Source: Candidatus Acidiferrales bacterium
Lineage (GTDB): Bacteria > Acidobacteriota > Terriglobia > Acidiferrales > 2-02-FULL-67-57
Reading direction: 5' to 3'
Assembly: GCA_965247455.1 (NCBI GenBank)
Contig: CBDFHE010000016.1
Span: 183,054-247,053 of the forward strand
DNA length: 64,000 bases
Shown here in pieces: positions 2,137 to 41,935 of this stretch (positions are counted from its first letter, which is position 1; each line of letters begins with the position of its first letter). A program made the translations under genes and the position numbers. Below the pieces are notes generated by a model. It worked only from the letters and a program-made list of their open reading frames with translations. It had not been told where the DNA came from and searched no databases.

Positions 2137-3522
2137 TGTAGCTGCAAAGTGAGAATGTCCTATTTGCGCAAAGTAGGAATGTCCTCTTTCATCAGGGCCA
2201 GGAGGGACGATGAGAGAGGAGCGAATCGAATTGAGCCAACGGGAGCAGGATCGGTTGAAGGTACTCCACCAAGTCGAGCAGGGCTATCTGACCCAGGTGG
2301 AAGCGGGCCGGCGGGTGCAGGTGAGCGTACGCCACCTGCGGCGTCTGCTGAGACGGGTGCGGGCGGAGGGGGACAGGGGCGTAGTGCATCGGCTGCGGGG
2401 GCGGCCCTCGAACCGGAAGATTCCAGCGGCCCTCCAGGGGCGCATCCTGGCCCAGGTGCGGCGGCGCTACGCCGACTTTGGGCCCACGCTGGCCAGCGAG
2501 CACCTGGCGCGAGATGGGTGGCAGGCCAGCCGGGAGACGCTGCGGCAGTGGATGACCGCCGCCGGGCTGTGGCGGTCGCGCCGGCAGCGGAGGCCGGCGG
2601 TGCACGTCTGGCGAGAGCGGCGGGCCGCCTTCGGCGAGTTGGTGATGATGGACAGCTCGCCCTATCGCTGGTTGGAGCGGCGCGGACCTCCCGTGCAGTT
2701 GATCGCGCTGATCGACGACGCTACCAGCCGGGTCTGGGGCCGCTTCGCCGCCCAGGACTCGACCGAGGAAAACCTGCGCACCCTGGCAGGCTGGCTCCGG
2801 CGCTGGGGACGGCCGCGGGCACTCTATACCGACAAAAGCAGCCTGTTCCGCACCACCCGCTCGGCCCGGCTCGACGAGCAGCTCGGCGGTCAGCCGGCCC
2901 GCACCCAGATCGGGCGGGCCCTGCAGGAGTTGGGGATCGAGTGGATTCCCGCCCACAGCCCCCAGGCCAAGGGGCGCATCGAGAGACTATTCGGCACCTT
3001 GCAGGACCGCCTGGTCAAGGAGATGCGCCTGGCCGGGGTGCACACGGTGGAGCAGGCCAACCGCTTCCTGGCAGCAGTCTTCCTGCCTTTCTGGGAGCAG
3101 CGCTTCACCGTCGCTCCGCGCCAGCCGCACGATGCCCACCGCCCGCTGGGAGGCACCCAGCGGCTGGAGTCAATCCTGAGCGTGCGCGAACCGCGCCGGG
3201 TGGCAGGCGACTACACCGTGCGCTGGCAGGGCCAGCGCTGGGCGATCCCGCGCGCCCAGGTGCGAGCGGGGTTGCGGGGGGCGCGGGTGGAGGTCGAACG
3301 GCGGCTCGACGGCAGCCGCTGGGTCCGCTTCCGCGGCTCTTATCTCAGCCTGCGGCCCTGCCCGAGCCCGCCGCCCGCGCCCGCAACCCCCTTCGGCCTA
3401 CGGCCTACGGGGCTTGCGGGCCCAAGGAAAGGCAAACGAAAGTACATTCCCCCTCCCGATCACCCTTGGAGGAGGACATTTCTATCTGGCAAAAAACCGG
3501 ACATTTCTACTTTGCGTTGACA
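2137..3522 (+). mobile_element. IS1202/ISNCY-family element with 16-bp TSD
   Basis: TGT...ACA ends; repeated GCAAAGTnnnAATGTCC end motifs; CCCTCGAAACTGAAGT at 2121-2136 and 3523-3538. Confidence 0.88.
2210..3520 (+). CDS. ISNCY/IS1202 DDE transposase
   Basis: N-terminal HTH; MDSS, IDDATS, YTDK and SPQAKGRIERLFGTLQDRL motifs. Confidence 0.92.
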   Translation: MREERIELSQREQDRLKVLHQVEQGYLTQVEAGRRVQVSVRHLRRLLRRVRAEGDRGVVHRLRGRPSNRKIPAALQGRILAQVRRRYADFGPTLASEHLARDGWQASRETLRQWMTAAGLWRSRRQRRPAVHVWRERRAAFGELVMMDSSPYRWLERRGPPVQLIALIDDATSRVWGRFAAQDSTEENLRTLAGWLRRWGRPRALYTDKSSLFRTTRSARLDEQLGGQPARTQIGRALQELGIEWIPAHSPQAKGRIERLFGTLQDRLVKEMRLAGVHTVEQANRFLAAVFLPFWEQRFTVAPRQPHDAHRPLGGTQRLESILSVREPRRVAGDYTVRWQGQRWAIPRAQVRAGLRGARVEVERRLDGSRWVRFRGSYLSLRPCPSPPPAPATPFGLRPTGLAGPRKGKRKYIPPPDHPWRRTFLSGKKPDISTLR

Positions 3523-3566
3523 CCCTCGAAACTGAAGTTCGGAGTTCGCGGAAAAACTTCCGAGGT

Positions 3567-4817
3567 TCAGGACTTCATTTGCTCGAGGAGGAGAATGAAC
3601 AGGACCAGGTAGCTCTTGATGCTGCTGGTGATGAGGAAGTTAGCTTTGACGTGCTCGTAGCCGTTCTCGCCCAAGCGTTGCATCACCGCAGGGTTGGAGA
3701 GAAGGTAACGGATTTGAAACGCGCAGCCTTCAATCGAGTGAACCAGCATTCCGGTTTGTTTATGGATGATCTGGCTGGGAATGCCTCCGACCGCTGAGGC
3801 CACCACCGGAACTTTCTTCCACAGCCCCTCGGCCACGGTCAGGCCGAAACCCTCGCGCAGGGACTTCTGAATCACAATGGTCGAGGCACGCTGGAGCGCA
3901 TTGATTTCCAGCGCGCTCCACGGCGGCAGCTCCAATACGCGCACGTCGGGGTCCTTCCCCGCCGCTTCGCGGACTTCCGCCAGCACTTCGCCGCCTTCGG
4001 GATCGTCCCGGGCGCCACCGCCCGCCAGCACCAGTTGGCAATCCACGTATTTCTTGACCATCTTGTAAGCGCGGATGACGCCCACCGGGTCCTTCAGACG
4101 GTCGAAGCGCGAGACCTGGGTGAGGATGGGGCGGCGGGCGTCGATCTGGAAACGCTCCAGCACGCTCGCAACGTATTCGGGTTCGAGCTCGCGATTCTTC
4201 TCCGACAAAGGATCAATGGCGGGGAAAAAGAGATTCTGCGGGACGGTGAGTTTGCGGGAAAAGTTGGGGGAGGAAAAAATCGCGGCGTCGAACTTTCTCA
4301 CCCAGGGTTCCAGAAAGGACCACACCGCCGGACTGGGGTTGGAGAGGTCGATGTGACAACGCCAAATCCAGGGTTTCTTCCGCTTTTCCTGCTCGCGTTG
4401 GTGGACGAGCCCGACCGGCTGCGGGTCATGGATGACCACGATATCCTCGGAAAAGTCCATGCGCGCGCGGTTCATCTCGTTCACGGCTAGGAATAACTCA
4501 AAGTCCGCCGGGCGGGACTCATAGGGAGCACCGTGCAGCGCGTTGTGGAAGGCTTTGGTCACTTCGAAGAAATCATTGCCGCCGGTAATGACATCCCAGC
4601 GCGTCGGCACTTCTAGGTCTTGCAGCAGTGGCACCATGCAGTTCAGGATTTCGGCCACGCCGCCGCCGACCGAAGTGGAGTTTACCATTTTGACCGTGCG
4701 CCCGCCCAGCCGGGCAGCCAGCGAACGCAACAGGCTGATCTCGGCTTCGCCCAAGACGGCGGCGTAATCTTCCAGATGAACAATGCGGGGCAGCGGAATG
4801 GAAGGATTGGAACCCAT
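3567..4817 (-). CDS. treT: trehalose glycosyltransferring synthase (GT4)
   Basis: NSTSVGGGVAEIL, IHDPQP, WRCHID, QVSRFDRLKDP, EGFGLTVAE; likely ATG overlaps upstream stop. Confidence 0.82.
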   Translation of the reverse strand: MGSNPSIPLPRIVHLEDYAAVLGEAEISLLRSLAARLGGRTVKMVNSTSVGGGVAEILNCMVPLLQDLEVPTRWDVITGGNDFFEVTKAFHNALHGAPYESRPADFELFLAVNEMNRARMDFSEDIVVIHDPQPVGLVHQREQEKRKKPWIWRCHIDLSNPSPAVWSFLEPWVRKFDAAIFSSPNFSRKLTVPQNLFFPAIDPLSEKNRELEPEYVASVLERFQIDARRPILTQVSRFDRLKDPVGVIRAYKMVKKYVDCQLVLAGGGARDDPEGGEVLAEVREAAGKDPDVRVLELPPWSALEINALQRASTIVIQKSLREGFGLTVAEGLWKKVPVVASAVGGIPSQIIHKQTGMLVHSIEGCAFQIRYLLSNPAVMQRLGENGYEHVKANFLITSSIKSYLVLFILLLEQMKS

Positions 4818-21272: not shown

Positions 21273-21317
21273 TTCAGCGCAACTTTTTAGCTCTGGCGAA
21301 ATGTACAGTCCTTGCTA

Positions 21318-22466
21318 GTGCACTGTCCCGGAAATATATGAGCAAAGTCGTTCGACCTTAGCGAGGATGGATTCGGCCGTGGCGGTCCCGACGAAAGGAC
21401 TGGTGTTGGCGTTGTAATGTTCGACGAAGCGCTCGATGTTACGGACGAGAGCCTTGACGCTGGAGAAGGAACCTCGGCGAATGGCCTTCTGGGTAATGAT
21501 GCCGAACCAGCGTTCGACTTGGTTGAGCCAGGACGCATAGGTTGGGGTGAAATGAACGTGGTAGCGGGGACGCCGAGCGAGCCAAGCGCGGACTTTGGGA
21601 TGTTTGTGAGTAGCGTAGTTATCGACGATGAGATGGACGTCGAGGTTGTGCGGCACACTGCCGTCGATCTGACGCAGGAAAGTGAGGAACTCCTGATGAC
21701 GGTGTCGCGGTTTACAGCGGGTGATGACTCTCCCGGTGGCCACATCGAGAGCCGCGAACAGAGTGGTCGTGCCGTGACGTTTGTAATCATGGGTGACGCC
21801 TTCGACGTAGCCGAGGCCCATGGGGAGAACGGGCTGAGTTCGCTGAAGAGCTTGAACCTGGGTCTTCTCATCGACCGAGAGCACCACGGCGTGGTCCGGG
21901 GGATTGAGGTAGAGACCGACGATGTCGCGGACTTTCTCGACGAAGAACGGGTCGTTGGAAATCTTGAAATGCCGCTGGCGATGCGGCTGGACGCCGAACA
22001 GATCGAACCACCGCTGGACCGTGCTCTTTGAGACTCCCGTGTGTTCCGCCATGGAACGCACGCTCCAGTGCGAACGATCGGGAGGTTCGGTTTGCAGGGC
22101 CGTGTTGATGACTTCCGCAACACGTTCATCCTCATGCGTGCGGGGGCGTCCGGGACGCAGTTCATCGTGTAGTCCGGGGATTCCATGTTCACGATAGCGC
22201 TTTCGCCACTTGCCCACGGTCGTATTGGTGACACCCAGACGCCGGGCCACGGTAGAGCCGGGAACGCCTTCGGCGCAGGCCAGCACAATCTGGGCCCTCA
22301 GCACCAGACTATGCGGCAAGGTTCGGGAGCGGGCGAGGCTCCCCAGTTCCGATTCCTCACTCTCACTGAGAGTGAGGGGAGTAACGGGGCGACCGCGTGG
22401 CATGGGCATACCTCCAGAGGCCAAAGGTTGCCCATTAATATATCGCTTATTTCCGGGACAGTACAC
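21318..22466 (-). mobile_element. IS630-family element, copy 1
   Basis: IR GTG(C/T)ACTGTCCCGGAAATA; TA duplication at a CTAG site; DEK, DNY and WLNQVERWF transposase motifs. Confidence 0.92.
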
Positions 22467-22560
22467 TAGCTCCGCCCTGCACAGAACTTCCCCCAGGATG
22501 ATACCGATTGAACGGCCCCGACGATTTACGGTCCTTTGCACAGAGTGAGTAAGGACACCC

Positions 22561-23490
22561 CTAGGGCATGCGATTTCCCGAGGTAAGGGCAATGCCAGAA
22601 AGCCTTGTTAGGCTCGAAGCGTTCTGGGCATATTTGTGAATATTTTGCAAAGATATAGGGCATGCACCTATGTAGGATTCACATGGGTAGCCGTTTATGC
22701 CGCTAGATTGCTCATGCATCTCCATAAGAATGCGGGAGAACTCTCCAATGTCAAGAGATTCAATCTTGTGTGCTTTTCCTGTGTTCACAAGCACACAGCA
22801 ATTCGACAGTCTAAAGTCAGGTATTGTGAGGGACAAAAACCCCCGATCTCTTAGTAAACAATACGTCTGGTCAAAGTCTGTCCATCTTATCTCCAGACCG
22901 CCGAAGTGGCTGTCTTGCAAGGCTCTTACCGTCTTGTTAAATCGTGCCACCATCTTAGTTGATATTTCTCTTACGTTCGGGTAAACAAGTTTGACCGACT
23001 GTACGCCGAAGTCGGCGAGATACTCGACTAAGCCTAACACTTCCTCTTCGTTCTCTGGTAGGAATAGAATAGTAATAGTGACGTTGATCCGATGATCCAG
23101 CAATCTTCCTATGTTACGCATAGTACTACTCGGGCATGTTCGGGTTCCAAAGATCTTATTGTGGTTCTGCAGTGAGTGCAAACTAACCGTCACTTTGCTA
23201 GGCCTATTTGTGACAAGATGCTCCAGATGCCTCTCGAGGTCTAAGCCATTCGTTAGCAAAGTGTAATCCATCCCCTTTGCCGTTATGATGTCAATAACCT
23301 CGATTATGTTGTCGAATATGAGGGGTTCACCTCCCGTTAGCCTGATCTGCCGGAACCCAGCTGAACGCGCTAGCCCTGCAAATTGCTCCAGCGTCCTTAT
23401 GGTACTCGGCGGGACGCGAGCTCTTTGTGAGAAGCTTGGTTCTACGTAGCAGAAGTAGCACTTAGCGTTACATACATTTGGCAAAAACAA
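22561..23490 (-). CDS. radical SAM protein with Cys-rich C-terminus (start uncertain)
   Basis: CNAKCYFC (CX3CX2C), LTGGEP, LTNG; C-terminal C...CC...C...C; AT-rich. Confidence 0.85.
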   Translation of the reverse strand: MFLPNVCNAKCYFCYVEPSFSQRARVPPSTIRTLEQFAGLARSAGFRQIRLTGGEPLIFDNIIEVIDIITAKGMDYTLLTNGLDLERHLEHLVTNRPSKVTVSLHSLQNHNKIFGTRTCPSSTMRNIGRLLDHRINVTITILFLPENEEEVLGLVEYLADFGVQSVKLVYPNVREISTKMVARFNKTVRALQDSHFGGLEIRWTDFDQTYCLLRDRGFLSLTIPDFRLSNCCVLVNTGKAHKIESLDIGEFSRILMEMHEQSSGINGYPCESYIGACPISLQNIHKYAQNASSLTRLSGIALTSGNRMP

Positions 23491-23816
23491 AAATAGAACC
23501 CCCCGTAGTAATTGTTAACCACATATTCAAGGCTTTCATTGGGGAAATGATTGGGTCTCTTACTGCTCCTGCAACTTATCGATTAGGAATAGTGCTGCAT
23601 AACCTGTTTTTGTCAATCCACTTACACTTTCTAGCTTTGTGTGGTGGTTAGTTTTCTGCTGCCGGAATATTTCACGCCCCTTTCTAGAAGTATCTCCTAG
23701 TTCTTCTGTCTTTGTGTAATTTCCTTCCAGTATCGTTCGGGTGATTCGCACGCATTTCCTAATTTCTCTATCAGTCTTGTCTGACAATTTCAAAATCAAA
23801 TCTGGAATGCTATCAA

Positions 23817-25486
23817 CCGGGATTTCCGTTTTGCCTGCCCCTGATGGCACGTTTATACACCCGATCGCCGCCGATCGCACAAAAACTTCGATCGTCGCAC
23901 AATCGCTCAGCTTCAAAGGCCTTCATCTGAGCCCGCGCCGACGTGCGACCGACTGGAACCCCTGCTTTTCGGGCATTTCTCAGACACCGCTCCACACGTG
24001 TGCCCCGTGTCATCGCCGGGCGGGCTTCGTTGCACTTCAGGCCGCGCGTCAGCCTGCCGGCACGGGTAGCGCCCAGATCCTCCGCAGCATGTCGCCGAAC
24101 AGCCGCCGCGTGAGATGCCCTTCCGCCAGCAGAAGCCAGTAGTACCGCGCATGCTTCACCAGCCGGCCCCCAGTTTTCACCAGTCGCTGCTGGAGACTCG
24201 TGAGCGACCAGCGCTTGACCCGCAGCGGAAGGACCAGTCTGCGCCACAAGTTGCCCAGATTGTAGGCCAGGACGCTCAGTTGCAGGCGCACCTCGTTCGC
24301 CCGGAAACGATGGCACGACAGCCGCGTCCAGTGGGTGGCCTGCTTGCCTTCCTTGATCCATTGCTCCGCCGTACCGCGCTTGTTGTAAAACCGCACGACC
24401 GAGCGGCTCGGGAGGGCCATGTTGGTCACGATGAAGCCGACGCGAGGGAACAGCTCACCTTGGTGGTGCTCCACCTTGGCGACGATCCGTCTGGGCGTGG
24501 TCCAGCTCTTGGCCTGATAGCGGAAACTCTGGTAGCGCACCAAGGGCTTGCAGCTCGGCCGTCCCGGCGGACGAAAGAGGATGTCTTCGATTTCCAGCTC
24601 CAAGCTCTTGTTCGCCGGCATGCGAATGGCATAGTCCACGTCGCGCTGCTCGAGCGCGTCGTAGATCTCGGGCTTCGCGAACGCGGCGTCTGCGCGGAAC
24701 GCTACGCGCTTGCCCTCCACCTGCTGCCGGTCAATCTCCGGTACGAGCAGGTCGTCCCAGTCGTCGGCGCTATGCACGTTGCCTGGCCGCAGCGTGGCGG
24801 CGAGGCAGTCCCCATGCTCGGTGAACAGAAACAGCGGGTGGTAGCAGACGGACTCGAAGTGCCCGTTATAGGCGCTCCCTTCCTGCGCCCCATGCACCGG
24901 GCTCTCGCTCGAATCCATGTCGAGCACGATCCGGTCGGCGCGCGTCGCCATCTCGGCCTGTGCAAGCACCTCCCGGTTCACGGCCCTCAACCCGACGAGA
25001 TTCTCCTCGTGGGTCAGCAGCTCTGTCTCGAACCAATGCAGCGTCGATGTCAGCGCCGCACCCCGGTCCCAGCGCTTTGGCGACCCGATGAGACGAAATG
25101 TTGGGTCTGCCGACACGCGCCCCGCGTCGTTGAGATCTTCGTAGCCCGCGAGGCGACTGTAGACCGACTGCCGCAGGAGATCCACCACGCTGAACTGGGT
25201 GTTCATCCCCTGTCGGGAATCGCTCAGGTGCTCGGCGATGAGTGTCTCCAGCCCCAGACGTTCATCCAACTCGCGCACCAGAATGAGGCCAGCGTCAGAA
25301 GTGACGCGCGATCCCTGGAACGCGACTTTCAAGAAGCCGTTGAACGCGAACTGGAATGGCTCGTGTTGTAATTCACCCACCGGGTGTCACCCTCCGTAGT
25401 GTGGTTCCTTACGTCGGAGCCCCAAAACTCAAGGCGCAGCGACTGGTCCTGGCGATACGGTACCACAGCCAAATCGGAAATCCGGG
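23817..25486 (-). mobile_element. IS1380-family element, copy 2 (transposase 24049..25380)
   Basis: 1670 bp; TSD ATCAA; TSDAG, LDMDS, RADAAF and YNKRGTAEQWIKEGK motifs. Confidence 0.95.
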
Positions 25487-26118
25487 ATCAAACGCATTCA
25501 AGGCTTTGGGTCCGAACGTTGGAATAGGCTCGGCCTTGGATGTGAATATTGTCCTTCCCATGATCGGCGTAAGGTCCATCCCTTCATTCTGTGCTGATAT
25601 GCGGTAGAAGAGTCCTAATTTGTCTACCTCCGTTTCCCATATTATGAAACCCAGGTTTACACTGCTGCCATCTATTATTTTTTGCTTCTTCAGGTAGTCT
25701 GATATCAGCCACCCCCGAACCAAGTGTACGAAAGTGCTCAAGAGCCGGATATCCTTTGGGTGGTATTTATTAAAGTCGCCAAAGCCTCTGATTGATAGGT
25801 TTAAGTTATTTCTTGCGATAGCTAGGAACTCCTCGCTTCCAATGAACTTTATGCTTTGTAGGAAGTCAGTTGAAAGCAAATGCTGAGCCGGGGGAGCTAC
25901 ACCAAAGAGATCAACAACGCTAATCTGGTTCTTATGTTTGCTGAATATCGAGAAAACCCTTTCGGTGAACTCGTGAAGATCCCTTGTTTCTTGTGAAGGC
26001 GCAGTTAAGTCCTTCGAAGGGAACACCAAAATCTTTTCTGTACGACCACTAGCCACAAGGCTGTGGAGGAACTCCAGGTATAGTAGGCCAACCAAGGGTA
26101 TTTTTGGCCTTAACCCTA

Positions 26119-27267
26119 GTGTACTGTCCCGGAAATAAGCGATATATTAATGGGCAACCTTTGGCCTCTGGAGGTATGCCCATGCCACGCGGTCGCCCCG
26201 TTACTCCCCTCACTCTCAGTGAGAGTGAGGAATCGGAACTGGGGCGCCTCGCCCGCTCCCGAACCTTGCCGCATAGTCTGGTGCTGAGGGCCCAGATTGT
26301 GCTGGCCTGCGCCGAAGGCGTTCCCGGCTCTACCGTGGCCCGGCGTCTGGGTGTCACCAATACGACCGTGGGCAAGTGGCGAAAGCGCTATCGTGAACAT
26401 GGAATCCCCGGACTACACGATGAACTGCGTCCCGGACGCCCCCGCACGCATGAGGATGAACGTGTTGCGGAAGTCATCAACACGGCCCTGCAAACCGAAC
26501 CTCCCGATCGTTCGCACTGGAGCGTGCGTTCCATGGCGGAACACACGGGAGTCTCAAAGAGCACGGTCCAGCGGTGGTTCGATCTGTTCGGCGTCCAGCC
26601 GCATCGCCAGCGGCATTTCAAGATTTCCAACGACCCGTTCTTCGTCGAGAAAGTCCGCGACATCGTCGGTCTCTACCTCAATCCCCCGGACCACGCCGTG
26701 GTGCTCTCGGTCGATGAGAAGACCCAGGTTCAAGCTCTTCAGCGAACTCAGCCCGTTCTCCCCATGGGCCTCGGCTACGTCGAAGGCGTCACCCATGATT
26801 ACAAACGTCACGGCACGACCACTCTGTTCGCGGCTCTCGATGTGGCCACCGGGAGAGTCATCACCCGCTGTAAACCGCGACACCGTCATCAGGAGTTCCT
26901 CACTTTCCTGCGTCAGATCGACGGCAGTGTGCCGCACAACCTCGACGTCCATCTCATCGTCGATAACTACGCTACTCACAAACATCCCAAAGTCCGCGCT
27001 TGGCTCGCTCGGCGTCCCCGCTACCACGTTCATTTCACCCCAACCTATGCGTCCTGGCTCAACCAAGTCGAACGCTGGTTCGGCATCATTACCCAGAAGG
27101 CCATTCGCCGAGGTTCCTTCTCCAGCGTCAAGGCTCTCGTCCGTAACATCGAGCGCTTCGTCGAACATTACAACGCCAACACCAGTCCTTTCGTCGGGAC
27201 CGCCACGGCCGAATCCATCCTCGCTAAGGTCGAACGACTTTGCTCATATATTTCCGGGACAGTACAC
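26119..27267 (+). mobile_element. IS630-family element, copy 2
   Basis: 1149 bp; TA duplication at CTAG; near-identical to copy 1. Confidence 0.93.
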
Positions 27268-27415
27268 TAGCTCGTAGATAACATAGTCCATTTTATGTTG
27301 GCCTACTACGTCGAAATAGTCAGTGAAACTAGTCTTGGTTGTAAATAATCCTCTTGTGGCGGACCAAGCTTTCTTTAGGCCTCGAGGAGAGAATTCAAAT
27401 TCAATCGTAATCACA

Positions 27416-29861
27416 TCATAGATTGTAATTTTCATCTTTAGAGCACTGCTCGATTTCTCGCATGTAGGTATGATACTTATTCACATATTCATGCCTGAAT
27501 CTTCCAAAATATTTCTGAGCAAACCAAAGCATAGATCCAAAGTAAACCGTTCTGCTGCCAGCCAGATCTAGGAAGAAGCTAAACAGTTTGTCACGGCTTC
27601 GGCAGAATTCTTTCACGTCTCTATCAAATAACCTGCTCTTTCTGTTATCCCCTTTCAGGATCACTTTGTTTCTCTCTATTCGTGCCCGGACTTTTCCAGT
27701 GTGAAATTGTTCCACCACCGAAACCATTCTGTTTCCCTCTAGAAACTCGTATACCGTTTGGATGAATACCGAATTGCAAAAAGTGTTGTCATTCAAACAA
27801 GGAGAGTAGTCCCTTAGGCAGCTTGTTCCCAGAAGCGAGCTATTTCCGAGTTGGTATTCTGCCAACCTGAAGGCGTCATATCGTCCGAGGAGCTTCATTT
27901 CTCTACGATTGAAAAGCTTGAAACCGGGATTTCCGTTTTGCCTGCCCCTGATGGCACGTTTATACACCCGATCGCCGCCGATCGCACAAAAACTTCGATC
28001 GTCGCACAATCGCTCAGCTTCAAAGGCCTTCATCTGAGCCCGCGCCGACGTGCGACCGACTGGAACCCCTGCTTTTCGGGCATTTCTCAGACACCGCTCC
28101 ACACGTGTGCCCCGTGTCATCGCCGGGCGGGCTTCGTTGCACTTCAGGCCGCGCGTCAGCCTGCCGGCACGGGTAGCGCCCAGATCCTCCGCAGCATGTC
28201 GCCGAACAGCCGCCGCGTGAGATGCCCTTCCGCCAGCAGAAGCCAGTAGTACCGCGCATGCTTCACCAGCCGGCCCCCAGTTTTCACCAGTCGCTGCTGG
28301 AGACTCGTGAGCGACCAGCGCTTGACCCGCAGCGGAAGGACCAGTCTGCGCCACAAGTTGCCCAGATTGTAGGCCAGGACGCTCAGTTGCAGGCGCACCT
28401 CGTTCGCCCGGAAACGATGGCACGACAGCCGCGTCCAGTGGGTGGCCTGCTTGCCTTCCTTGATCCATTGCTCCGCCGTACCGCGCTTGTTGTAAAACCG
28501 CACGACCGAGCGGCTCGGGAGGGCCATGTTGGTCACGATGAAGCCGACGCGAGGGAACAGCTCACCTTGGTGGTGCTCCACCTTGGCGACGATCCGTCTG
28601 GGCGTGGTCCAGCTCTTGGCCTGATAGCGGAAACTCTGGTAGCGCACCAAGGGCTTGCAGCTCGGCCGTCCCGGCGGACGAAAGAGGATGTCTTCGATTT
28701 CCAGCTCCAAGCTCTTGTTCGCCGGCATGCGAATGGCATAGTCCACGTCGCGCTGCTCGAGCGCGTCGTAGATCTCGGGCTTCGCGAACGCGGCGTCTGC
28801 GCGGAACGCTACGCGCTTGCCCTCCACCTGCTGCCGGTCAATCTCCGGTACGAGCAGGTCGTCCCAGTCGTCGGCGCTATGCACGTTGCCTGGCCGCAGC
28901 GTGGCGGCGAGGCAGTCCCCATGCTCGGTGAACAGAAACAGCGGGTGGTAGCAGACGGACTCGAAGTGCCCGTTATAGGCGCTCCCTTCCTGCGCCCCAT
29001 GCACCGGGCTCTCGCTCGAATCCATGTCGAGCACGATCCGGTCGGCGCGCGTCGCCATCTCGGCCTGTGCAAGCACCTCCCGGTTCACGGCCCTCAACCC
29101 GACGAGATTCTCCTCGTGGGTCAGCAGCTCTGTCTCGAACCAATGCAGCGTCGATGTCAGCGCCGCACCCCGGTCCCAGCGCTTTGGCGACCCGATGAGA
29201 CGAAATGTTGGGTCTGCCGACACGCGCCCCGCGTCGTTGAGATCTTCGTAGCCCGCGAGGCGACTGTAGACCGACTGCCGCAGGAGATCCACCACGCTGA
29301 ACTGGGTGTTCATCCCCTGTCGGGAATCGCTCAGGTGCTCGGCGATGAGTGTCTCCAGCCCCAGACGTTCATCCAACTCGCGCACCAGAATGAGGCCAGC
29401 GTCAGAAGTGACGCGCGATCCCTGGAACGCGACTTTCAGGAAGCCGTTGAACGCGAACTGGAATGGCTCGTGTTGTAATTCACCCACCGGGTGTCACCCT
29501 CCGTAGTGTGGTTCCTTACGTCGGAGCCCCAAAACTCAAGGCGCAGCGACTGGTCCTGGCGATACGGTACCACAGCCAAATCGGAAATCCGGGTGAAATG
29601 GTACGAATTGATGCCCAAATCCTGATGCAAGTGCCTTTCTATTTTCAGTCTCATTTCCCTAAGTGTTCGGAGAGAGAGGTTGTTTCCTATTAGGATTACG
29701 GAGTCGATGTCCTTCGCAGAATTTTGTTCGCATTCTCGTCGGCCACTTCCGACTAATAAAATATCGATTAGGTGAAGATTTAAAGAGCACAAATAGTCGA
29801 AGACATTTCCGGAAACCCCTCTCCAGAACTCCCGCCGATTGGAGATCGTGTTTTCGCTCAA
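27416..29861 (-). pseudogene. 256-aa Pol-beta-superfamily nucleotidyltransferase-domain ORF split by IS1380
   Basis: ILLVGSG...KDIDSVILI (GS...DxD); frame restored at GINSYHF|KLFNRR. Confidence 0.72.
27924..29593 (-). mobile_element. IS1380-family element, copy 3 (transposase 28156..29487)
   Basis: 1670 bp; TSD TGAAA. Confidence 0.95.
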
Positions 29862-30002
29862 CTGGTGCAGCCGCCGGTTAGGGATCGGGCTCTCTTATTC
29901 GAAACATTGAAGGAAGTCTACAGTAATCTCAGTCTTGTTGACAAGCCCCTGCTCTACCCATCGCAGAGAGGCTGCGCTAAGATTGGCGGCGCAAGGTGCG
30001 CT

Positions 30003-31700
30003 ATGCCTGAGTCCACCGCAATCAACGCCGCCACCTACAAGCCGGTCAAGGCTCCGCGAGGAACGCAGCTCACTTGCCAGGGTTGGCACCAGGAAGCCGC
30101 CCGGCGCATGTTGATGAACAACCTCGACCCCGAAGTGGCCGAGCGGCCGGAAGAACTGATCGTCTATGGCGGCACCGGCAAGGCCGCGCGCAATTGGGAC
30201 TGCTTCCACGCCATCGTCCGTTCGCTGGAGAGCCTGCGCAACGACGAAACTTTGCTGGTCCAGTCCGGTAAGCCGGTGGGAATCTTCCGCACTCATGAGT
30301 GGGCGCCGCGCGTCCTGATTGCCAACGCCAACCTGGTGGGCCACTGGTCGCACTGGGAGCACTTCCGCGAGCTGGAGCGCGCCGGGCTGATGATGTACGG
30401 CCAGATGACCGCCGGCAGTTGGATCTACATCGGCACGCAGGGCATCGTCCAGGGCACGTTTGAGACTTTTGCCGCTGCCGGCCAGCGCCACTTTGGCGGC
30501 GACCTGCGCGGCAAGCTGATCGCCTCCGGCGGTCTGGGCGGAATGGGCGGCGCTCAACCGCTGGCCGCCACTATGAACGGCGCCTGCTTCCTCGGCATCG
30601 AAGTCGATCCCGCCCGCATCAAGCGCCGCGTCAAGAGCGGCTACTGCGACATCATGGTCAACGACCTCGACGAGGCGCTGCGCATCTTGAAGGAGAAGCT
30701 GCGGAAAAAGGAAGCGGTCTCGGTGGGCTTAGTAGGCAACTGCGCCGATCTGATTCCCGCGCTGGCCGAGCGCGGCATCGTCCCCGACCTGCTCACCGAC
30801 CAGACCAGCGCCCACGACCCGCTCAACGGCTACATCCCCAGCGGCCTGACGGTGGAGGCGGCAGCCGAGCTGCGCCGCAAAGATTCCGAAGGCTACCTGC
30901 AACGCTCGATGGACTCCATCGTCCGGCACGTGGAAGGGATGCTGCGCTTGCAGCGGCTGGGCGCGGTCACCTTCGATTACGGAAACAACATCCGCACCAT
31001 GGCCTACAAGCACGGGGTCAGCGAAGCCTACGCCTTCCCCAGTTTTGTGCCGGCCTACATTCGTCCTATGTTTTGCGCAGGGCGCGGGCCGTTCCGCTGG
31101 GTGGCGCTCTCGGGTGAGCCTGCCGACATCCACCGCACCGACAAGCTGGTGCTGGAACTCTTCCCGAAAGATGAAGTCCTGGCGCGTTGGATTCCGCTGG
31201 CGCAGAAGCGCATCAAGTTCCAGGGACTGCCGGCGCGCATCTGCTGGTTAGGCTACGGCGAGCGGGCCGAGTTCGGCCGGCGCATCAACGACCTGGTACG
31301 GCGCGGCGAACTCAAAGCGCCCATCGTCATCGGACGCGACCACCTTGACACCGGTTCGGTCGCCTCGCCCTTCCGCGAAACCGAAAAGATGAAAGACGGC
31401 AGTGACGCGGTCGCCGACTGGGCTTTGCTCAACGCGCTGCTCAATGCCGTCAGCGGCGCCAGTTGGGTTTCCATTCACAACGGCGGCGGCGTGGGCATCG
31501 GCTACTCGCAGCACGCCGGCCAAGTCATCGTCGCCGACGGCACTTCCGAAATGGACGTGCGCCTCGAGCGCGTGCTCACCAACGACCCCGGCATCGGCAT
31601 CGCCCGCCACGCCGACGCCGGTTACCCCGAAGCCCTCTCCTTTGCCCGCAAGAAAAACCTCAACCTCCCCATGCCTGAGCAATCAGACGAGAACGGGTAG
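30003..31700 (+). CDS. hutU: urocanate hydratase
   Basis: [41 protein letters not shown]. Confidence 0.96.
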
Positions 31701-32632: not shown

Positions 32633-35610
32633 ATGCCAACGCGCCCCTTCCTTCTCGCCCATTGCGGCCAGCTGCTGACGCTGCGCGGCCAGCGCCGCCC
32701 GCGTCGCCGACGCCAACTGGCTCGTTGGGTCTCATCCGCGATGGCGCAGTGCTCATGCAGGAGGGCCGCATTGTGGCCGTCGGCACGACGCGCGCGGTCG
32801 AGCGCCACCCGCTCGCTCGTCGCGCAAACAAATTCACTGCCCGCGAGCTGATCGTCCTGCCGGGTTTTGTCGATTCGCACACGCACTTACTCTTCCCCGC
32901 CAGCCGCGCCGACGAGTACGTGCAGCGCATTGCCGGCCTGTCCCGAGCGAAGTCGAGGGGCGCCAGCTACGAACAGATCGCCCGCCGCGGCGGCGGCATC
33001 CTCTCCACCGTCCGGAAGCTCCGCCGCGCTGACAATCAGAGCTTGCAGCAGCAAGCGCGGCGTTGGCTCGGCGAGTTTGCCACGCACGGCACCACGACGC
33101 TGGAAGCCAAGAGCGGCTACGGACTCAGCCTCGGAAGCGAACTCAAGATGCTGGAAATCCTGCGTCGCCTCAATCGCGAAGGCCCGCTCGAGCTGGTGGC
33201 CACGTTTCTGGGCGCGCACGTGGTGCCACCCGAGTACAAGCGCAAGCCGGATGCCTACCTGGACTTGTTGGTTCGGCGGATGATTCCCGCCGTGGCCGCG
33301 CGCGGGCTGGCCGAGTTCTGCGACATTTTTTGCGACCGCGGCGCCTTCATGCCTACGCAGGCGCGGCTCATCCTGACCGCCGCGCGTGTCTGCGGCATGG
33401 AACCGCGCCTGCACGCCGAGCAGTTGGCCCGCACCGGCGGCGCGCGGCTAGCGGTCCAACTCCACGTCGCCAGCGTGGACCATCTGGACCCGGATTTCCG
33501 ATTTGGCTGTGGTACCGTATCGCCAGGACCAGTCGCTGCGCCTTGAGTTTTGGGGCTCCGACGTAAGGAACCACACTACGGAGGGTGACACCCGGTGGGT
33601 GAATTACAACACGAGCCATTCCAGTTCGCGTTCAACGGCTTCTTGAAAGTCGCGTTCCAGGGATCGCGCGTCACTTCTGACGCTGGCCTCATTCTGGTGC
33701 GCGAGTTGGATGAACGTCTGGGGCTGGAGACACTCATTGCCGAGCACCTGAGCGATTCCCGACAGGGGATGAACACCCAGTTCAGCGTGGTGGATCTCCT
33801 GCGGCAGTCGGTCTACAGTCGCCTCGCGGGCTACGAAGATCTCAACGACGCGGGGCGCGTGTCGGCAGACCCAACATTTCGTCTCATCGGGTCGCCAAAG
33901 CGCTGGGACCGGGGTGCGGCGCTGACATCGACGCTGCATTGGTTCGAGACAGAGCTGCTGACCCACGAGGAGAATCTCGTCGGGTTGAGGGCCGTGAACC
34001 GGGAGGTGCTTGCACAGGCCGAGATGGCGACGCGCGCCGACCGGATCGTGCTCGACATGGATTCGAGCGAGAGCCCGGTGCATGGGGCGCAGGAAGGGAG
34101 CGCCTATAACGGGCACTTCGAGTCCGTCTGCTACCACCCGCTGTTTCTGTTCACCGAGCATGGGGACTGCCTCGCCGCCACGCTGCGGCCAGGCAACGTG
34201 CATAGCGCCGACGACTGGGACGACCTGCTCGTACCGGAGATTGACCGGCAGCAGGTGGAGGGCAAGCGCGTAGCGTTCCGCGCAGACGCCGCGTTCGCGA
34301 AGCCCGAGATCTACGACGCGCTCGAGCAGCGCGACGTGGACTATGCCATTCGCATGCCGGCGAACAAGAGCTTGGAGCTGGAAATCGAAGACATCCTCTT
34401 TCGTCCGCCGGGACGGCCGAGCTGCAAGCCCTTGGTGCGCTACCAGAGTTTCCGCTATCAGGCCAAGAGCTGGACCACGCCCAGACGGATCGTCGCCAAG
34501 GTGGAGAGCACCACCAAGGTGAGCTGTTCCCTCGCGTCGGCTTCATCGTGACCAACATGGCCCTCCCGAGCCGCTCGGTCGTGCGGTTTTACAACAAGCG
34601 CGGTACGGCGGAGCAATGGATCAAGGAAGGCAAGCAGGCCACCCACTGGACGCGGCTGTCGTGCCATCGTTTCCGGGCGAACGAGGTGCGCCTGCAACTG
34701 AGCGTCCTGGCCTACAATCTGGGCAACTTGTGGCGCAGACTGGTCCTTCCGCTGCGGGTCAAGCGCTGGTCGCTCACGAGTCTCCAGCAGCGACTGGTGA
34801 AAACTGGGGGCCGGCTGGTGAAGCATGCGCGGTACTACTGGCTTCTGCTGGCGGAAGGGCATCTCACGCGGCGGCTGTTCGGCGACATGCTGCGGAGGAT
34901 CTGGGCGCTACCCGTGCCGGCAGGCTGACGCGCGGCCTGAAGTGCAACGAAGCCCGCCCGGCGATGACACGGGGCACACGTGTGGAGCGGTGTCTGAGAA
35001 ATGCCCGAAAAGCAGGGGTTCCAGTCGGTCGCACGTCGGCGCGGGCTCAGATGAAGGCCTTTGAAGCTGAGCGATTGTGCGACGATCGAAGTTTTTGTGC
35101 GATCGGCGGCGATCGGGTGTATAAACGTGCCATCAGGGGCAGGCAAAACGGAAATCCCGGCTGGAACGCATCAACCGCGCCGACATTCGGGCACTGGGGG
35201 CCTCCGACACCATCTGCACGCTGCTGCCGGGGGCGGTCTTCCACCTCGGCAAGTCAACCTACGCGCCCGCGCGCGCTCTCATCGATGCTGGTGCTGCCGT
35301 GGCTCTCGCCACCGACTTCAACCCCGGCACCTCGCCCACCGTCTCCATGCCGATGATTCTCTCGCTGGCCTGCACGCAGATGCGGATGTCTCCGGCGGAA
35401 GCCATCGCCGCCGCCACCATCAACGGCGCTCACGCCCTGCGGCGCGCCGACCGCCTGGGCTCGCTCGAAGCTGGCAAGCAGGCCGACCTGTGCGCCTTTG
35501 AGCTTTCCGATTACCGCGAAATCCCGTATTATTTCGGAGTTAATTTTTGTCGGTTGACTATCAAGCGGGGACAGGTGATCCATGACGCCAGCGGGCGATT
35601 CCAAACCTGA
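32633..35610 (+). pseudogene. hutI: imidazolonepropionase, frameshifted near 32720 and split by IS1380
   Basis: PGFVDSHTH, EAKSGYG, HAEQL, VDHLE|RIN, ATDFNPG. Confidence 0.92.
33489..35160 (+). mobile_element. IS1380-family element, copy 4, transposase frameshifted
   Basis: 1672 bp; TSD CTGGA; extra AG near 34506. Confidence 0.94.
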
Positions 35611-39462: not shown

Positions 39463-41935
39463 TCAAAACCCGGCCGTGAGCGAACGCAGATAAGCTTCCC
39501 GGTCGCGCATCTGTTCCTCCGGCACCCGGTTCAGGAACTGTTGCACCCGCGGATGCGAAACCTGTTGGATCTCGTCGGGGGTTCCTAGGGCGATCACCTC
39601 TCCTTCGTGCAGCATGGCGATTCGGTCCGCAATCTGGAAAGCGCTCACCAGCTCGTGCGTCACCACCACCATCGTCAAGGGAAAAGTCTTCTTCAGGTTC
39701 AAGATCAACGCGTCGATGCCCGCAGCGGTGATGGGGTCGAGCCCGGCCGAGGGCTCATCGAAGAGCAGGATCTCGGGATCCATGGCCAGGGCGCGCGCCA
39801 GCCCCGCGCGTTTGCGCATGCCTCCGCTGAGCTGCGCGGGCATGTAGTCGTCAAAACCTGTCAACCCCACCAAGTCGAGCTTCATCCGCACCATGATTTG
39901 AACCCGGATTTCCGATTTGGCTGTGGTACCGTATCGCCAGGACCAGTCGCTGCGCCTTGAGTTTTGGGGCTCCGACGTAAGGAACCACACTACGGAGGGT
40001 GACACCCGGTGGGTGAATTACAACACGAGCCATTCCAGTTCGCGTTCAACGGCTTCTTGAAAGTCGCGTTCCAGGGATCGCGCGTCACTTCTGACGCTGG
40101 CCTCATTCTGGTGCGCGAGTTGGATGAACGTCTGGGGCTGGAGACACTCATCGCCGAGCACCTGAGCGATTCCCGACAGGGGATGAACACCCAGTTCAGC
40201 GTGGTGGATCTCCTGCGGCAGTCGGTCTACAGTCGCCTCGCGGGCTACGAAGATCTCAACGACGCGGGGCGCGTGTCGGCAGACCCAACATTTCGTCTCA
40301 TCGGGTCGCCAAAGCGCTGGGACCGGGGTGCGGCGCTGACATCGACGCTGCATTGGTTCGAGACAGAGCTGCTGACCCACGAGGAGAATCTCGTCGGGTT
40401 GAGGGCCGTGAACCGGGAGGTGCTTGCACAGGCCGAGATGGCGACGCGCGCCGACCGGATCGTGCTCGACATGGATTCGAGCGAGAGCCCGGTGCATGGG
40501 GCGCAGGAAGGGAGCGCCTATAACGGGCACTTCGAGTCCGTCTGCTACCACCCGCTGTTTCTGTTCACCGAGCATGGGGACTGCCTCGCCGCCACGCTGC
40601 GGCCAGGCAACGTGCATAGCGCCGACGACTGGGACGACCTGCTCGTACCGGAGATTGACCGGCAGCAGGTGGAGGGCAAGCGCGTAGCGTTCCGCGCAGA
40701 CGCCGCGTTCGCGAAGCCCGAGATCTACGACGCGCTCGAGCAGCGCGACGTGGACTATGCCATTCGCATGCCGGCGAACAAGAGCTTGGAGCTGGAAATC
40801 GAAGACATCCTCTTTCGTCCGCCGGGACGGCCGAGCTGCAAGCCCTTGGTGCGCTACCAGAGTTTCCGCTATCAGGCCAAGAGCTGGACCACGCCCAGAC
40901 GGATCGTCGCCAAGGTGGAGCACCACCAAGGTGAGCTGTTCCCTCGCGTCGGCTTCATCGTGACCAACATGGCCCTCCCGAGCCGCTCGGTCGTGCGGTT
41001 TTACAACAAGCGCGGTACGGCGGAGCAATGGATCAAGGAAGGCAAGCAGGCCACCCACTGGACGCGGCTGTCGTGCCATCGTTTCCGGGCGAACGAGGTG
41101 CGCCTGCAACTGAGCGTCCTGGCCTACAATCTGGGCAACTTGTGGCGCAGACTGGTCCTTCCGCTGCGGGTCAAGCGCTGGTCGCTCACGAGTCTCCAGC
41201 AGCGACTGGTGAAAACTGGGGGCCGGCTGGTGAAGCATGCGCGGTACTACTGGCTTCTGCTGGCGGAAGGGCATCTCACGCGGCGGCTGTTCGGCGACAT
41301 GCTGCGGAGGATCTGGGCGCTACCCGTGCCGGCAGGCTGACGCGCGGCCTGAAGTGCAACGAAGCCCGCCCGGCGATGACACGGGGCACACGTGTGGAGC
41401 GGTGTCTGAGAAATGCCCGAAAAGCAGGGGTTCCAGTCGGTCGCACGTCGGCGCGGGCTCAGATGAAGGCCTTTGAAGCTGAGCGATTGTGCGACGATCG
41501 AAGTTTTTGTGCGATCGGCGGCGATCGGGTGTATAAACGTGCCATCAGGGGCAGGCAAAACGGAAATCCCGGTTGAATAGTGGATTCCTCCAGCTTGGTC
41601 AGCTCGCGCAGCGGCAAGGCAACGTTGTCAGCCAGCGTCATGGAGCCGAACAGTGCTCCGCTCTGAAACAACACTCCCATCCGGCGCCGCACTCGATTCA
41701 ACTCCTCTTCACTGGCCCGGCAGGTGTCGATCCCGTTGATGAACACGTGCCCCTCGGAGGGCCTCTCCAAGGCCAGGATGTGGCGCAGCAGAGTGCTCTT
41801 GCCGGTACCGCTCGCCCCCAGCAACACCAGGGTTTCCCGGGGGCGGATTTGCAGGTTGATGTTGCTCAGGATGCGCCGCGTCCCGTAGTGGGTAGTGAGA
41901 CCTTCAATGCGGATGACGGCGTCGGTCGCGTCCAT
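39463..41935 (-). pseudogene. MlaF-like ABC ATPase split by IS1380
   Basis: GASGTGKS, then LSGGMRKR and FDEPSAGLD; frame restored at ESTIQ|IMVRMK. Confidence 0.9.
39903..41572 (+). mobile_element. IS1380-family element, copy 5 (transposase 40009..41340)
   Basis: 1670 bp; TSD TTGAA. Confidence 0.95.

Follow-up and report, generated by a model that had tools for sequence, protein, structure and literature searches.

Between positions 22,561 and 29,861 of a 64,000-nucleotide stretch from a Candidatus Acidiferrales bacterium (assembly GCA_965247455.1, contig CBDFHE010000016.1, positions 183,054 to 247,053; the whole stretch is called the window, and its coordinates are used below), we found the remains of a horizontally acquired cassette of three genes. 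They encode a probable nucleotidyltransferase (NTase), a protein whose predicted structure has the full architecture of the tyrosyl- and tryptophanyl-tRNA synthetases (TyrRS and TrpRS, class Ic), and a radical S-adenosylmethionine (SAM) enzyme. The synthetase-like protein defines an earlier unannotated family. The pair that it forms with the radical SAM enzyme is the constant core of the cassette in very distant hosts, and a Pol-beta-type NTase is a recurring third part. The copy in the window is destroyed, and intact copies exist elsewhere.

Reconstruction of the three genes

Two IS1380-type insertion sequences (IS) and one of the IS630 type split the cassette into pieces (Table 1). When the three elements are excised in silico, keeping one copy of each target duplication, two minus-strand open reading frames (ORFs) are obtained. 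The first encodes 256 aa with a GS-x11-DID motif (TTG at 29861 to 27416), the second encodes 349 aa (ATG at 27435 to 23560), and the two overlap by 20 nt (27416-27435). This is exactly the result announced by an earlier interpretation made from the letters alone (the sequence-only reading), and the CX3CX2C radical SAM gene that it placed next in line is indeed there. The duplicated targets are ATCAA for the first IS1380 copy (23812-23816 and 25487-25491), TGAAA for the second (27919-27923 and 29594-29598, 5 bp) and TA, inside CTAG, for the IS630-type element (26117-26118 and 27268-27269). The two IS1380 copies differ by 1 base and each has 22-nt terminal inverted repeats; with their DDE_Tnp_1_4 transposase and 5-bp duplications they belong to the IS1380 family. 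The DDE_3 and helix-turn-helix (HTH) domains of the other element, together with its TA duplication within CTAG at both ends, place it in IS630.

The rebuilt frames are not chance, because they are colinear with intact homologues, because close relatives are uninterrupted at the same points and because contigs bridge the insertion sites. An intact homologue of 350 aa (P0002) aligns over its full length with the three pieces of the 349-aa gene, and intact proteins of 260 aa (P0070) and 247 aa (P0003) do so with the two pieces of the 256-aa gene. Three cluster-mates (P0001, P0065 and P0067, at least 90% identity) run through the insertion sites uninterrupted. Among them, P0065 is an intact protein of 357 aa that has 311 of the 349 residues in common with the rebuilt synthetase-like protein. 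Metagenome contigs of other studies contain the same DNA, at roughly 95% identity, free of the insertions. The site of the first IS1380 copy is empty in contigs X3 (3097 nt) and X5 (3109 nt), where 23812 is bridged to 25488, and also in contig X4; 1675 nt are skipped in this natural empty site. The site of IS630-type copy b is empty in X3 (26115 bridged to 27267, 1151 nt skipped), and X5 passes there from 26118 to 27308 with 38 other letters between. The second IS1380 copy lies outside this contig comparison, made with the stretch up to 27923; that its site was once empty is shown solely through colinearity with the intact homologues.

The third gene bears a lesion of another kind. The radical SAM ORF that is callable now starts three residues before the first cluster cysteine, a start that would remove the first barrel strand. 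The window frame upstream of this ORF matches the N-terminal extension of the radical SAM genes at three other loci described below (L001, L005 and L006), and a single additional base is present in contigs X3 and X5 next to the C6 run of 23499-23504 (at 23498 and 23496, respectively). On these grounds we read the third gene as carrying a -1 frameshift, unless a homopolymer error is common to the assembly and the contigs; contig X1, probably from the source sample (depth 4), agrees with the window at this run. The damage then comprises one IS1380-type element in the NTase gene, the IS630-type and the other IS1380-type element in the synthetase-like gene and, in the radical SAM gene, a frameshift of 1 nt. 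The sequence-only reading was right that the cassette is inactivated, but its count of three insertions in two genes was too low, since with the frameshift all three genes are damaged. It overlooked this lesion and also a fourth IS at the left border of the island.

A synthetase-like family and its partners

No Pfam, NCBIfam, PADLOC or PHROGs family matches the 349-aa protein. With HMMER, a family of 61 proteins at E<=0.001, and 51 at <=1e-10, was collected from 1.84 billion cluster representatives (50% identity). Its members are mostly 340-420 aa long, and all the named ones are called 'hypothetical protein'. An AlphaFold2 model built from a 43-sequence alignment is confident (pLDDT 93.7, pTM 0.89). 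All 46 rows listed by Foldseek against the PDB are TyrRS, TrpRS or derivatives, with E down to 7.8e-7. The VIA search, which is independent of Foldseek, also has TrpRS and TyrRS in its top 14 rows (Z 11.3-15.0), with alignments of 232-264 residues spanning 26-350; a truncated TyrRS (Z 10.9) follows, then MetRS and cyclodipeptide synthases (CDPSs) at Z of about 9. The model has both the Rossmann catalytic domain and the C-terminal helical domain of class Ic. These matches sharpen the 'aaRS-like' label (aaRS, aminoacyl-tRNA synthetase) that the sequence-only reading had given to this protein: as modelled, it has the full TyrRS/TrpRS architecture.

The same kinship is hardly visible to sequence profiles. 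PF00579 does not match the window pieces, P0002 or any of the 43 aligned members, and the family profile finds no aaRS chain among the PDB sequences at E<=10. One cytidylyltransferase-like chain, 3glv, was returned by the latter search at E 0.0072 and was treated as unreliable. The Atlas language-model search with P0002 gave nothing usable (best feature score 0.82, with pLDDT 0.37 for Atlas's own model).

We placed the family by eye on the H-L-G-H and K-M-S-K-S signatures of the genome's own TyrRS and TrpRS, the host having kept ordinary genes for both. None of the 43 members has H-x-G-H in the HIGH region, where the host's own enzymes read HLGH/HLGN. With TyrRS spacing, this position is occupied by residues of the D-L-L-Y type, D63 being nearly invariant and Y66 invariant (P0002 numbering). 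Just before it lies G-L-R-P, for which the genome's own TrpRS has G-M-R-P. At the KMSKS position, after the fifth strand, a nearly invariant G243 is followed in most rows by K/R and S/T, and the first Lys is replaced by I/L; this register was set by eye and by a weak hhalign match just downstream (E 0.14; TrpRS, 3 sequences). H186 and W216 are invariant and E219 is nearly so. Because the replacements at the catalytic positions are conserved, the active site appears to be remodelled and not dead.

The family recurs with a radical SAM gene. In all four readable loci (the window, L001, L005 and L006), the synthetase-like gene is directly upstream of an orthologous radical SAM gene. L001, a 5-kb metagenome contig, has the three genes intact and in the order of the window, with an NTase-like protein of 247 aa, a synthetase-like protein of 350 aa and a radical SAM protein of 303 aa. 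Its gene gaps are 5-6 nt, and the GC (guanine plus cytosine) content of this cassette is 24-32% in a 44-48% background. In Micromonospora zhanjiangensis (L005) and Actinoplanes solisilvae (L006), the synthetase-like gene and an overlapping radical SAM gene are followed by the gene for an inositol monophosphatase (IMPase)-family phosphatase and then by that for an NTP_transf_2 NTase. The nucleotide similarity of the two actinomycete loci is limited to these four genes and ends exactly at the cassette edges, the flanks being unrelated. Two members are fusions of the synthetase-like and radical SAM proteins (P0021, 649 aa and complete; P0050, 503 aa and N-terminally cut), which match the radical SAM profile at E 8.5e-75 and 3.7e-73 and belong to the same subfamily. 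Finally, the metagenome-assembled genome of a Flavobacteriaceae has an NTase homologue (49% identity) whose locus tag adjoins that of its synthetase-like homologue. A Pol-beta-type NTase is thus found with the synthetase-like gene in five loci. This evidence consists of four readable loci, one locus-tag adjacency and two fusions, out of 61 family clusters.

That three unrelated foreign genes came together by chance, without forming a functional unit, is scarcely credible. It would agree with the lack of demonstrable orthology between the NTases of the two types of cassette. However, the intact triplet of L001, the sharp cassette edges of the actinomycete loci and the constant adjacency or fusion of the other two genes in very distant hosts all speak against it, and for the synthetase-like/radical SAM pair chance assembly is already contradicted. 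The three genes are a real unit, as the sequence-only reading had supposed when it proposed a search for intact homologous triplets. The core is the pair, and the NTase is a recurring third part, as its two types share only the region of the catalytic motif (see below).

The cassette occurs very sporadically, in hosts as different as marine bacteria, Micromonospora and Actinoplanes. A search of 60 relatives, of 400 further genomes sampled in the window's phylum and of 400 more in the family to which the Micromonospora hit belongs gave no member of the synthetase-like family. Genome contigs scanned with the close subfamily gave 19 pattern matches, and a scan of viral contigs gave 113; no relative was among them.

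Several observations were made on the other loci themselves. The L001 cassette lies between two apparent parts of one beta-CASP/RMMBL ribonuclease gene (L001:1-700 and 3459-4724), the right part of which matches PF07521 (E 1.5e-18). To the eye, a sequence in frame +3 at about 150-400 of L001 looks like the remaining C-terminal part of an IS3-type integrase, the segment 3459-4300 has host-like GC and no clear ORF, and Rfam gave a single sub-threshold match on this contig. In L005 (7830-12754), the GC content at third codon positions (GC3) is 0.79-0.83 in the cassette genes and 0.92-0.98 in their neighbours. This lower third-position GC marks the four-gene block, perhaps with an adjacent gene of an aminoglycoside phosphotransferase (APH)-family kinase, as foreign in Micromonospora too. 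Cassette GC is below that of the host in the window, in L001 and, as GC3, in L005.

The partner enzyme is a member of the radical SAM superfamily, with the CNAKCYFC motif and 80.5 bits for PF04055 (cut-off 29.5). It is 36% identical to the L001 protein (E 9e-77) and 37% to that of the Actinoplanes locus L006 (E 2e-61), and over the four loci the radical SAM genes are orthologous with 29-37% identity. All curated NCBIfam cut-offs were clearly missed. The best rows are MoaA, which acts on GTP (TIGR02666, 72.7 versus 284.05 bits), and among the others, all below cut-off, are BlsE, acting on a cytosine nucleoside (52.7 versus 400), and viperin, acting on CTP (NF038283, 52.3 versus 180). The viperin match covers residues 3-114 only, and the PADLOC models of prokaryotic viperins (pVip) match only the first ~120 residues. 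A pVip, far under the NF038283 cut-off, and the GTP 3',8-cyclase MoaA were both rejected as identifications. Five extra Cys are invariant in the C-terminal part of the 4 aligned sequences, which suggests an auxiliary cluster; no SPASM match was found in Pfam at E<=0.1. Prediction of a complex between the synthetase-like and radical SAM proteins scored 0.00 twice, in runs made without controls, which is evidence neither for nor against an interaction.

Some of these relatives act on peptides. SkfB, BlsE and MoaA are the best sequence matches in the PDB (E 1.9e-13 to 2.9e-12), with YydG, PqqE and the SPASM-type chain 5v1q also present, and ScmF, AlbA, PapB and similar maturases appear in NCBIfam, far below cut-off. 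Together with the five extra Cys, this could fit the maturation of a peptide that is ribosomally made and post-translationally modified (RiPP), in which the radical SAM enzyme would crosslink or modify a precursor peptide and the synthetase-like protein would add an amino acid, following the logic of CDPSs or of peptide aminoacyl-tRNA ligases (PEARLs). We consider such a role quite improbable: no small ORF is conserved, less than 100 nt of the window island lie outside the three genes, the block conserved between L005 and L006 consists of exactly four enzyme genes, and neither a peptidase nor an exporter accompanies them. The missing SPASM match also argues against it.

The assignment of the 256-aa protein as a nucleotidyltransferase is probable. 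Pol-beta NTases have the motif hG[GS]-x9-13-Dh[DE]h. The window protein has VGS-x11-DID, its homologues P0003 and P0070 have VGS-x9/10-D-x-D, and hhalign puts this motif on that of the actinomycete NTP_transf_2 proteins. Of 30 Atlas feature matches, 22 are in clusters bearing NTP_transf_2. The actinomycete NTase itself passes PF01909 (22.4 versus 21 bits), and no significant match exists for the window type in Pfam, NCBIfam, PADLOC or PHROGs. The likeness between the two types is confined to the catalytic-motif region (hhalign E 0.058), and BLASTP of the actinomycete NTase returned nothing against P0003 or the window piece. The assignment of the window-type protein to the NTase fold is weak. 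Its model, with an alpha/beta N-domain and a helical C-domain, has a pLDDT of 65. No Foldseek match reaches E<=0.001; the best has E 0.054 (AAD(9)), and the weak top rows are AAD(9), ANT(4'), KNTase, HalB and MntA. VIA puts the N-domain of RimP first (Z 8.7), with NTases at Z 5.2-6.8.

The island, its insertion sequences and its decay

Table 1. Insertion elements and gene pieces of the island, by position in the window.
Feature	Position	Strand	Details
IS630-type copy a	21315-22469	-	directly at the left island border; 26116-27270 in reverse complement, 2 of 1155 nt mismatched
Radical SAM ORF callable now	22561-23490	-	309 aa from TTG 23490; CNAKCYFC; PF04055 E 2.1e-22
Radical SAM N-terminal extension, frameshifted	23491-23559	-	putative -1 lesion in the C6 run, 23499-23504 (coding strand: G6)
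Synthetase-like, C-terminal piece	23560-23816	-	84 aa and stop; colinear with P0002 residues ~267-350; profile E 1.5e-9
IS1380-type copy 1	23817-25486	-	1670 nt; transposase 24049-25380; PF13701 E 7.2e-118
Synthetase-like, middle piece	25492-26118	-	208 aa; 40% identity to P0002; family profile E 2.7e-93
IS630-type copy b	26119-27267	+	DDE_3 (E 1.8e-21) and HTH domains; 22-nt inverted repeats
Synthetase-like, N-terminal piece	27270-27435	-	55 aa; ATG 27435; P0065 and P0067 read over this junction
NTase-like, C-terminal piece	27416-27923	-	168 aa and stop; 44-49% identity to P0070 and P0069
IS1380-type copy 2	27924-29593	-	1670 nt; transposase 28156-29487
NTase-like, N-terminal piece	29599-29861	-	87 aa; GS-x11-DID; TTG start 29861; aligned to P0070 and P0003 in their VGS...DxD region

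The island is flanked by the gene of an acyl-CoA ligase (AMP-binding) on one side and by the urocanase gene hutU on the other, as identified by domain scan. The GC content of its blocks is 0.41-0.47 (22500-23999, 25500-26249, 27000-27999 and 29500-29999), versus 0.58-0.67 in the flanks and IS bodies. The AT-rich block described in the sequence-only reading, with these two neighbours, is borne out in each respect. The ligase and hutU are 8.8 kb apart in the window, and in three of three related genomes of the same family (G003, G006 and G009) they are divergent neighbours separated by 110-156 nt. In view of this GC contrast and of the empty ligase-hutU site in relatives, the island is a cassette of some 2.9 kb, acquired horizontally, that landed in a short divergent spacer and has been destroyed since; the horizontal origin had likewise been proposed from the letters alone. 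The neighbouring genes are housekeeping ones, those of an M48 peptidase, a Cys/Met pyridoxal phosphate (PLP)-dependent enzyme, phosphoglucomutase, ThiG and a formiminotransferase.

The listed hutU ORF encodes 611 aa from GTG 29865 (29865-31700) and starts 4 nt from the opposite-strand NTase start. As its urocanase domains do not begin before residue 61 and the alignment with relatives sets in at about 30045, the true hutU start is probably some 180 nt further inside.

The left-border IS630-type copy a and copy b form a 470-nt perfect inverted repeat (I1). Both types of element are abundant in this 3.12-Mb genome, which has undergone an IS burst: at least 40 full-length, essentially identical IS1380-type copies were counted (41 matches; 40 of 138 candidates scored), and 21 matches were obtained for the IS630-type element, in 18 of which the identity is 100% over no fewer than 1153 of 1155 nt. 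Further IS copies lie in the window near 33595-34551, with a shortened transposase ORF of 318 aa, and near 40009-41340. Three insertions in 2.95 kb are more than uniform insertion would lead one to expect, the Poisson probability being 3e-5 if there are 60 copies and 8e-4 if there are 183. This clustering could reflect relaxed selection, a preference for AT-rich targets or selection for inactivation.

Other assemblies of the same population show further differences. The tail of P0066 corresponds to a different frame of the window at about 25844 (25844-25858), i.e. a frameshift in the synthetase-like gene; the NTase P0068, whose longest contig equals that of P0066 in length, is short at its N-terminus; and P0001 has a different C-terminal end. 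Such cassettes suggest repeated independent decay, unless they are due to assembly errors. Contigs X3 and X5 also have a 6-nt insertion, GACCAG, just 3' of the radical SAM stop (window 22544). Of the words sampled from the stretch with the radical SAM and C-terminal synthetase-like sequences, a fraction of 0.10 was present in the metatranscriptome run X7 and of 0.08 in X9, which is no measure of expression.

Possible roles and relation to known systems

In the reading that we prefer, the synthetase-like and radical SAM proteins would form a single enzyme pair whose substrate bears a nucleotide. A nucleotide or nucleoside would undergo radical chemistry at its ribose or base in the radical SAM half; the other half, the remodelled synthetase, would bind an adenosine-like moiety and ligate or transfer an acyl, probably aminoacyl, group. 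The Pol-beta-type NTase may activate or cap the substrate by nucleotidylation and, in the actinomycete version, the IMPase-family phosphatase may strip a phosphate. The puromycin pathway uses an IMPase-like monophosphatase. The product would then be a modified, possibly aminoacylated, nucleoside or nucleotide. It is quite possible, if somewhat short of probable, that the cassette is such a small-molecule pathway, with an aminoacyl-nucleoside as its hypothetical product. We lean to this reading because the partners (phosphatase and NTase) handle nucleotides, because relatives of the radical SAM enzyme act on nucleotides, because tRNA genes and precursor ORFs are absent and because enzymes of nucleoside antibiotics offer a precedent for an aaRS-like protein.

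That precedent comes from the AlaRS-like AcmF and the IleRS-like SbzA, stand-alone aaRS paralogues that aminoacylate small molecules in the making of nucleoside and sulfonamide antibiotics, according to a review (PMC12945691). Aminoacylation of a small molecule by an aaRS paralogue is the logic favoured here for the cassette, although AcmF and SbzA are of another aaRS class or subclass and are set in large actinomycete clusters. The same source describes CDPSs as class Ic-derived enzymes that have lost HIGH and KMSKS and perform non-translational chemistry (PMC12945691). The CDPSs AlbC, Rv2275 and YvmC match the predicted structure of the synthetase-like protein (Z 7.3-9.4). However, the listed chains have 220-255 residues and align mostly up to ~246-293, whereas the family keeps a helical C-terminal domain; its conserved residues are also different, and its partner is a radical SAM enzyme. 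A CDPS identity was rejected in view of the length of 340-420 aa with the helical domain, the Z scores below those of TyrRS and TrpRS and the lack of a CDPS match in Pfam.

With TyrRS and TrpRS, the family appears to share the Rossmann catalytic domain with its connective insertion, the C-terminal helical domain, and sequence relics in the form of G-L-R-P before the HIGH position and G-K-S/T at the KMSKS position. It differs from them by the lack of a PF00579 or PDB aaRS sequence match, by the change of the HIGH His to Asp and Tyr (by eye), by the loss of the first KMSKS Lys, by a membrane helix in most members and by the radical SAM linkage. The radical SAM enzyme has the CX3CX2C and GGEP-type core in common with MoaA, BlsE, SkfB and viperins; its own Cys pattern and an N-terminal YY/YC-x-G extension are specific to the cassette subfamily. 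The NTase, in turn, is similar to the two-domain Pol-beta NTases (ANT(4')/KNTase, AAD(9), MntA and HalB of Hailong) in having hG-S-x(9-11)-D-x-D in the same place, about 250 aa and an alpha/beta plus helical organization, but the window-type protein lacks a significant profile match and its best Foldseek match is the AAD(9) row mentioned above.

Several points weigh against the nucleotide-pathway reading. The top PDB sequence match of the radical SAM protein is the peptide maturase SkfB. The NTase fold of the window-type protein is weakly assigned, and the likeness of the two NTase types in the motif region only means that the third component may not be strictly equivalent. No transporter or self-resistance gene is present in the cassette. 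The C-terminal helical domain, which in TyrRS and TrpRS contacts tRNA, is kept and would equally fit a tRNA substrate. Finally, an N-terminal membrane helix is predicted in 27 of the 43 family members (alignment A4), which points to a membrane-associated job.

The helical domain leads to a tRNA-directed alternative. The synthetase-like protein would dock a specific tRNA for base or ribose modification by the radical SAM enzyme, and the NTase would act on the 3' end, with protection, repair or poisoning as the outcome in a conflict with a phage or competitor. The structural match spans the whole of TyrRS/TrpRS, including this domain, and CDPSs, which lack it, score only Z 7.3-9.4. The sole NCBIfam match of the NTase N-terminal piece is an archaeal CCA-adding enzyme (E 0.039), and the sporadic, island-like and decay-prone distribution would also suit such a role. 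We nevertheless regard it as rather unlikely. The CCA-adding match is far below cut-off, at noise level, and the four loci have no tRNA gene within or next to them (the window has only two, at 2010 and 60945). Moreover, the actinomycete IMPase-family phosphatase is without an obvious tRNA role, and a membrane helix would be odd for a tRNA enzyme.

The membrane helix favours another alternative, in which a membrane-anchored synthetase-like ligase and the radical SAM enzyme would decorate a lipid or cell-wall precursor, for instance an inositol- or nucleotide-activated head group, with the NTase and phosphatase handling the activated intermediate. The IMPase-family gene of the actinomycete cassettes is in line with this idea, and so is the presence of MshC, a CysRS-like ligase whose substrate is an inositol conjugate, among the structural matches (Z 7.8). 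Such an envelope function is improbable, as the helix is absent from the window-type subgroup (the window protein, P0002, P0004 and P0006) and as a glycosyltransferase, flippase or lipid enzyme is absent from all cassettes.

A bolder version of the nucleotide-pathway reading would make the pair a new two-part enzyme, in which the aaRS scaffold, with its ATP-handling His replaced by Asp and Tyr, would supply the radical step with an aminoacyl- or adenosine-type substrate. On this view, the three genes would amount to a self-contained conflict system (anti-phage or toxin) producing an aminoacyl-nucleoside that blocks translation or replication. If this were true, the cost of the cassette would account for its repeated knock-out in this lineage, but we judge it unlikely. 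No PADLOC family fits the cassette; defence-type matches are limited to the sub-family-level likeness of the radical SAM core to viperins and to the PADLOC 'Cyclase' model on the 87-aa NTase piece (E 0.0073). CBASS (cyclic-oligonucleotide-based anti-phage signalling) was rejected, as this match stands alone and no effector-type gene is in the cassette. No defence island, proximity to which the sequence-only reading had proposed to test, surrounds the cassette in the three named contexts, where the flanking genes are metabolic or regulatory, and the viral contigs scanned contained no relative. Of its overall interpretation, the unit, the aaRS-like protein, the horizontal origin and the inactivation have stood, and the link to defence is unsupported. 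With a sporadic and decay-prone distribution, a defence role is neither supported nor excluded.

The cassette matches no described system that we found, in agreement with the sequence-only reading: no Pfam, NCBIfam, PADLOC or PHROGs family fits it, and no published description of it or of an aaRS-like/radical SAM pairing was found in the literature, as far as abstracts, for the most part, reveal. In the 2026 review of aminoacyl-tRNA-dependent enzymes, the term 'radical SAM' is absent and TyrRS/TrpRS-type folds are reported only for CDPSs (PMC12945691). The protein family and its radical SAM pairing are new; the recruitment of aaRS paralogues to non-translational chemistry is known.

The aaRS paralogues found outside translation, such as CDPSs, MshC, GluQRS, AcmF and SbzA, have each opened a new chemistry. 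Here, a full-length look-alike of TyrRS and TrpRS had been missed by sequence profiles and by a language-model search, and the cassette to which it belongs, with three or four genes, is small enough for direct expression testing. The window copy is also a piece of natural history, a foreign cassette hit by three IS and a frameshift, of which related populations have versions without two of these insertions. This locus, though a wreck, leads to an undescribed enzyme cassette that is real and rare, can be tested and is intact elsewhere.

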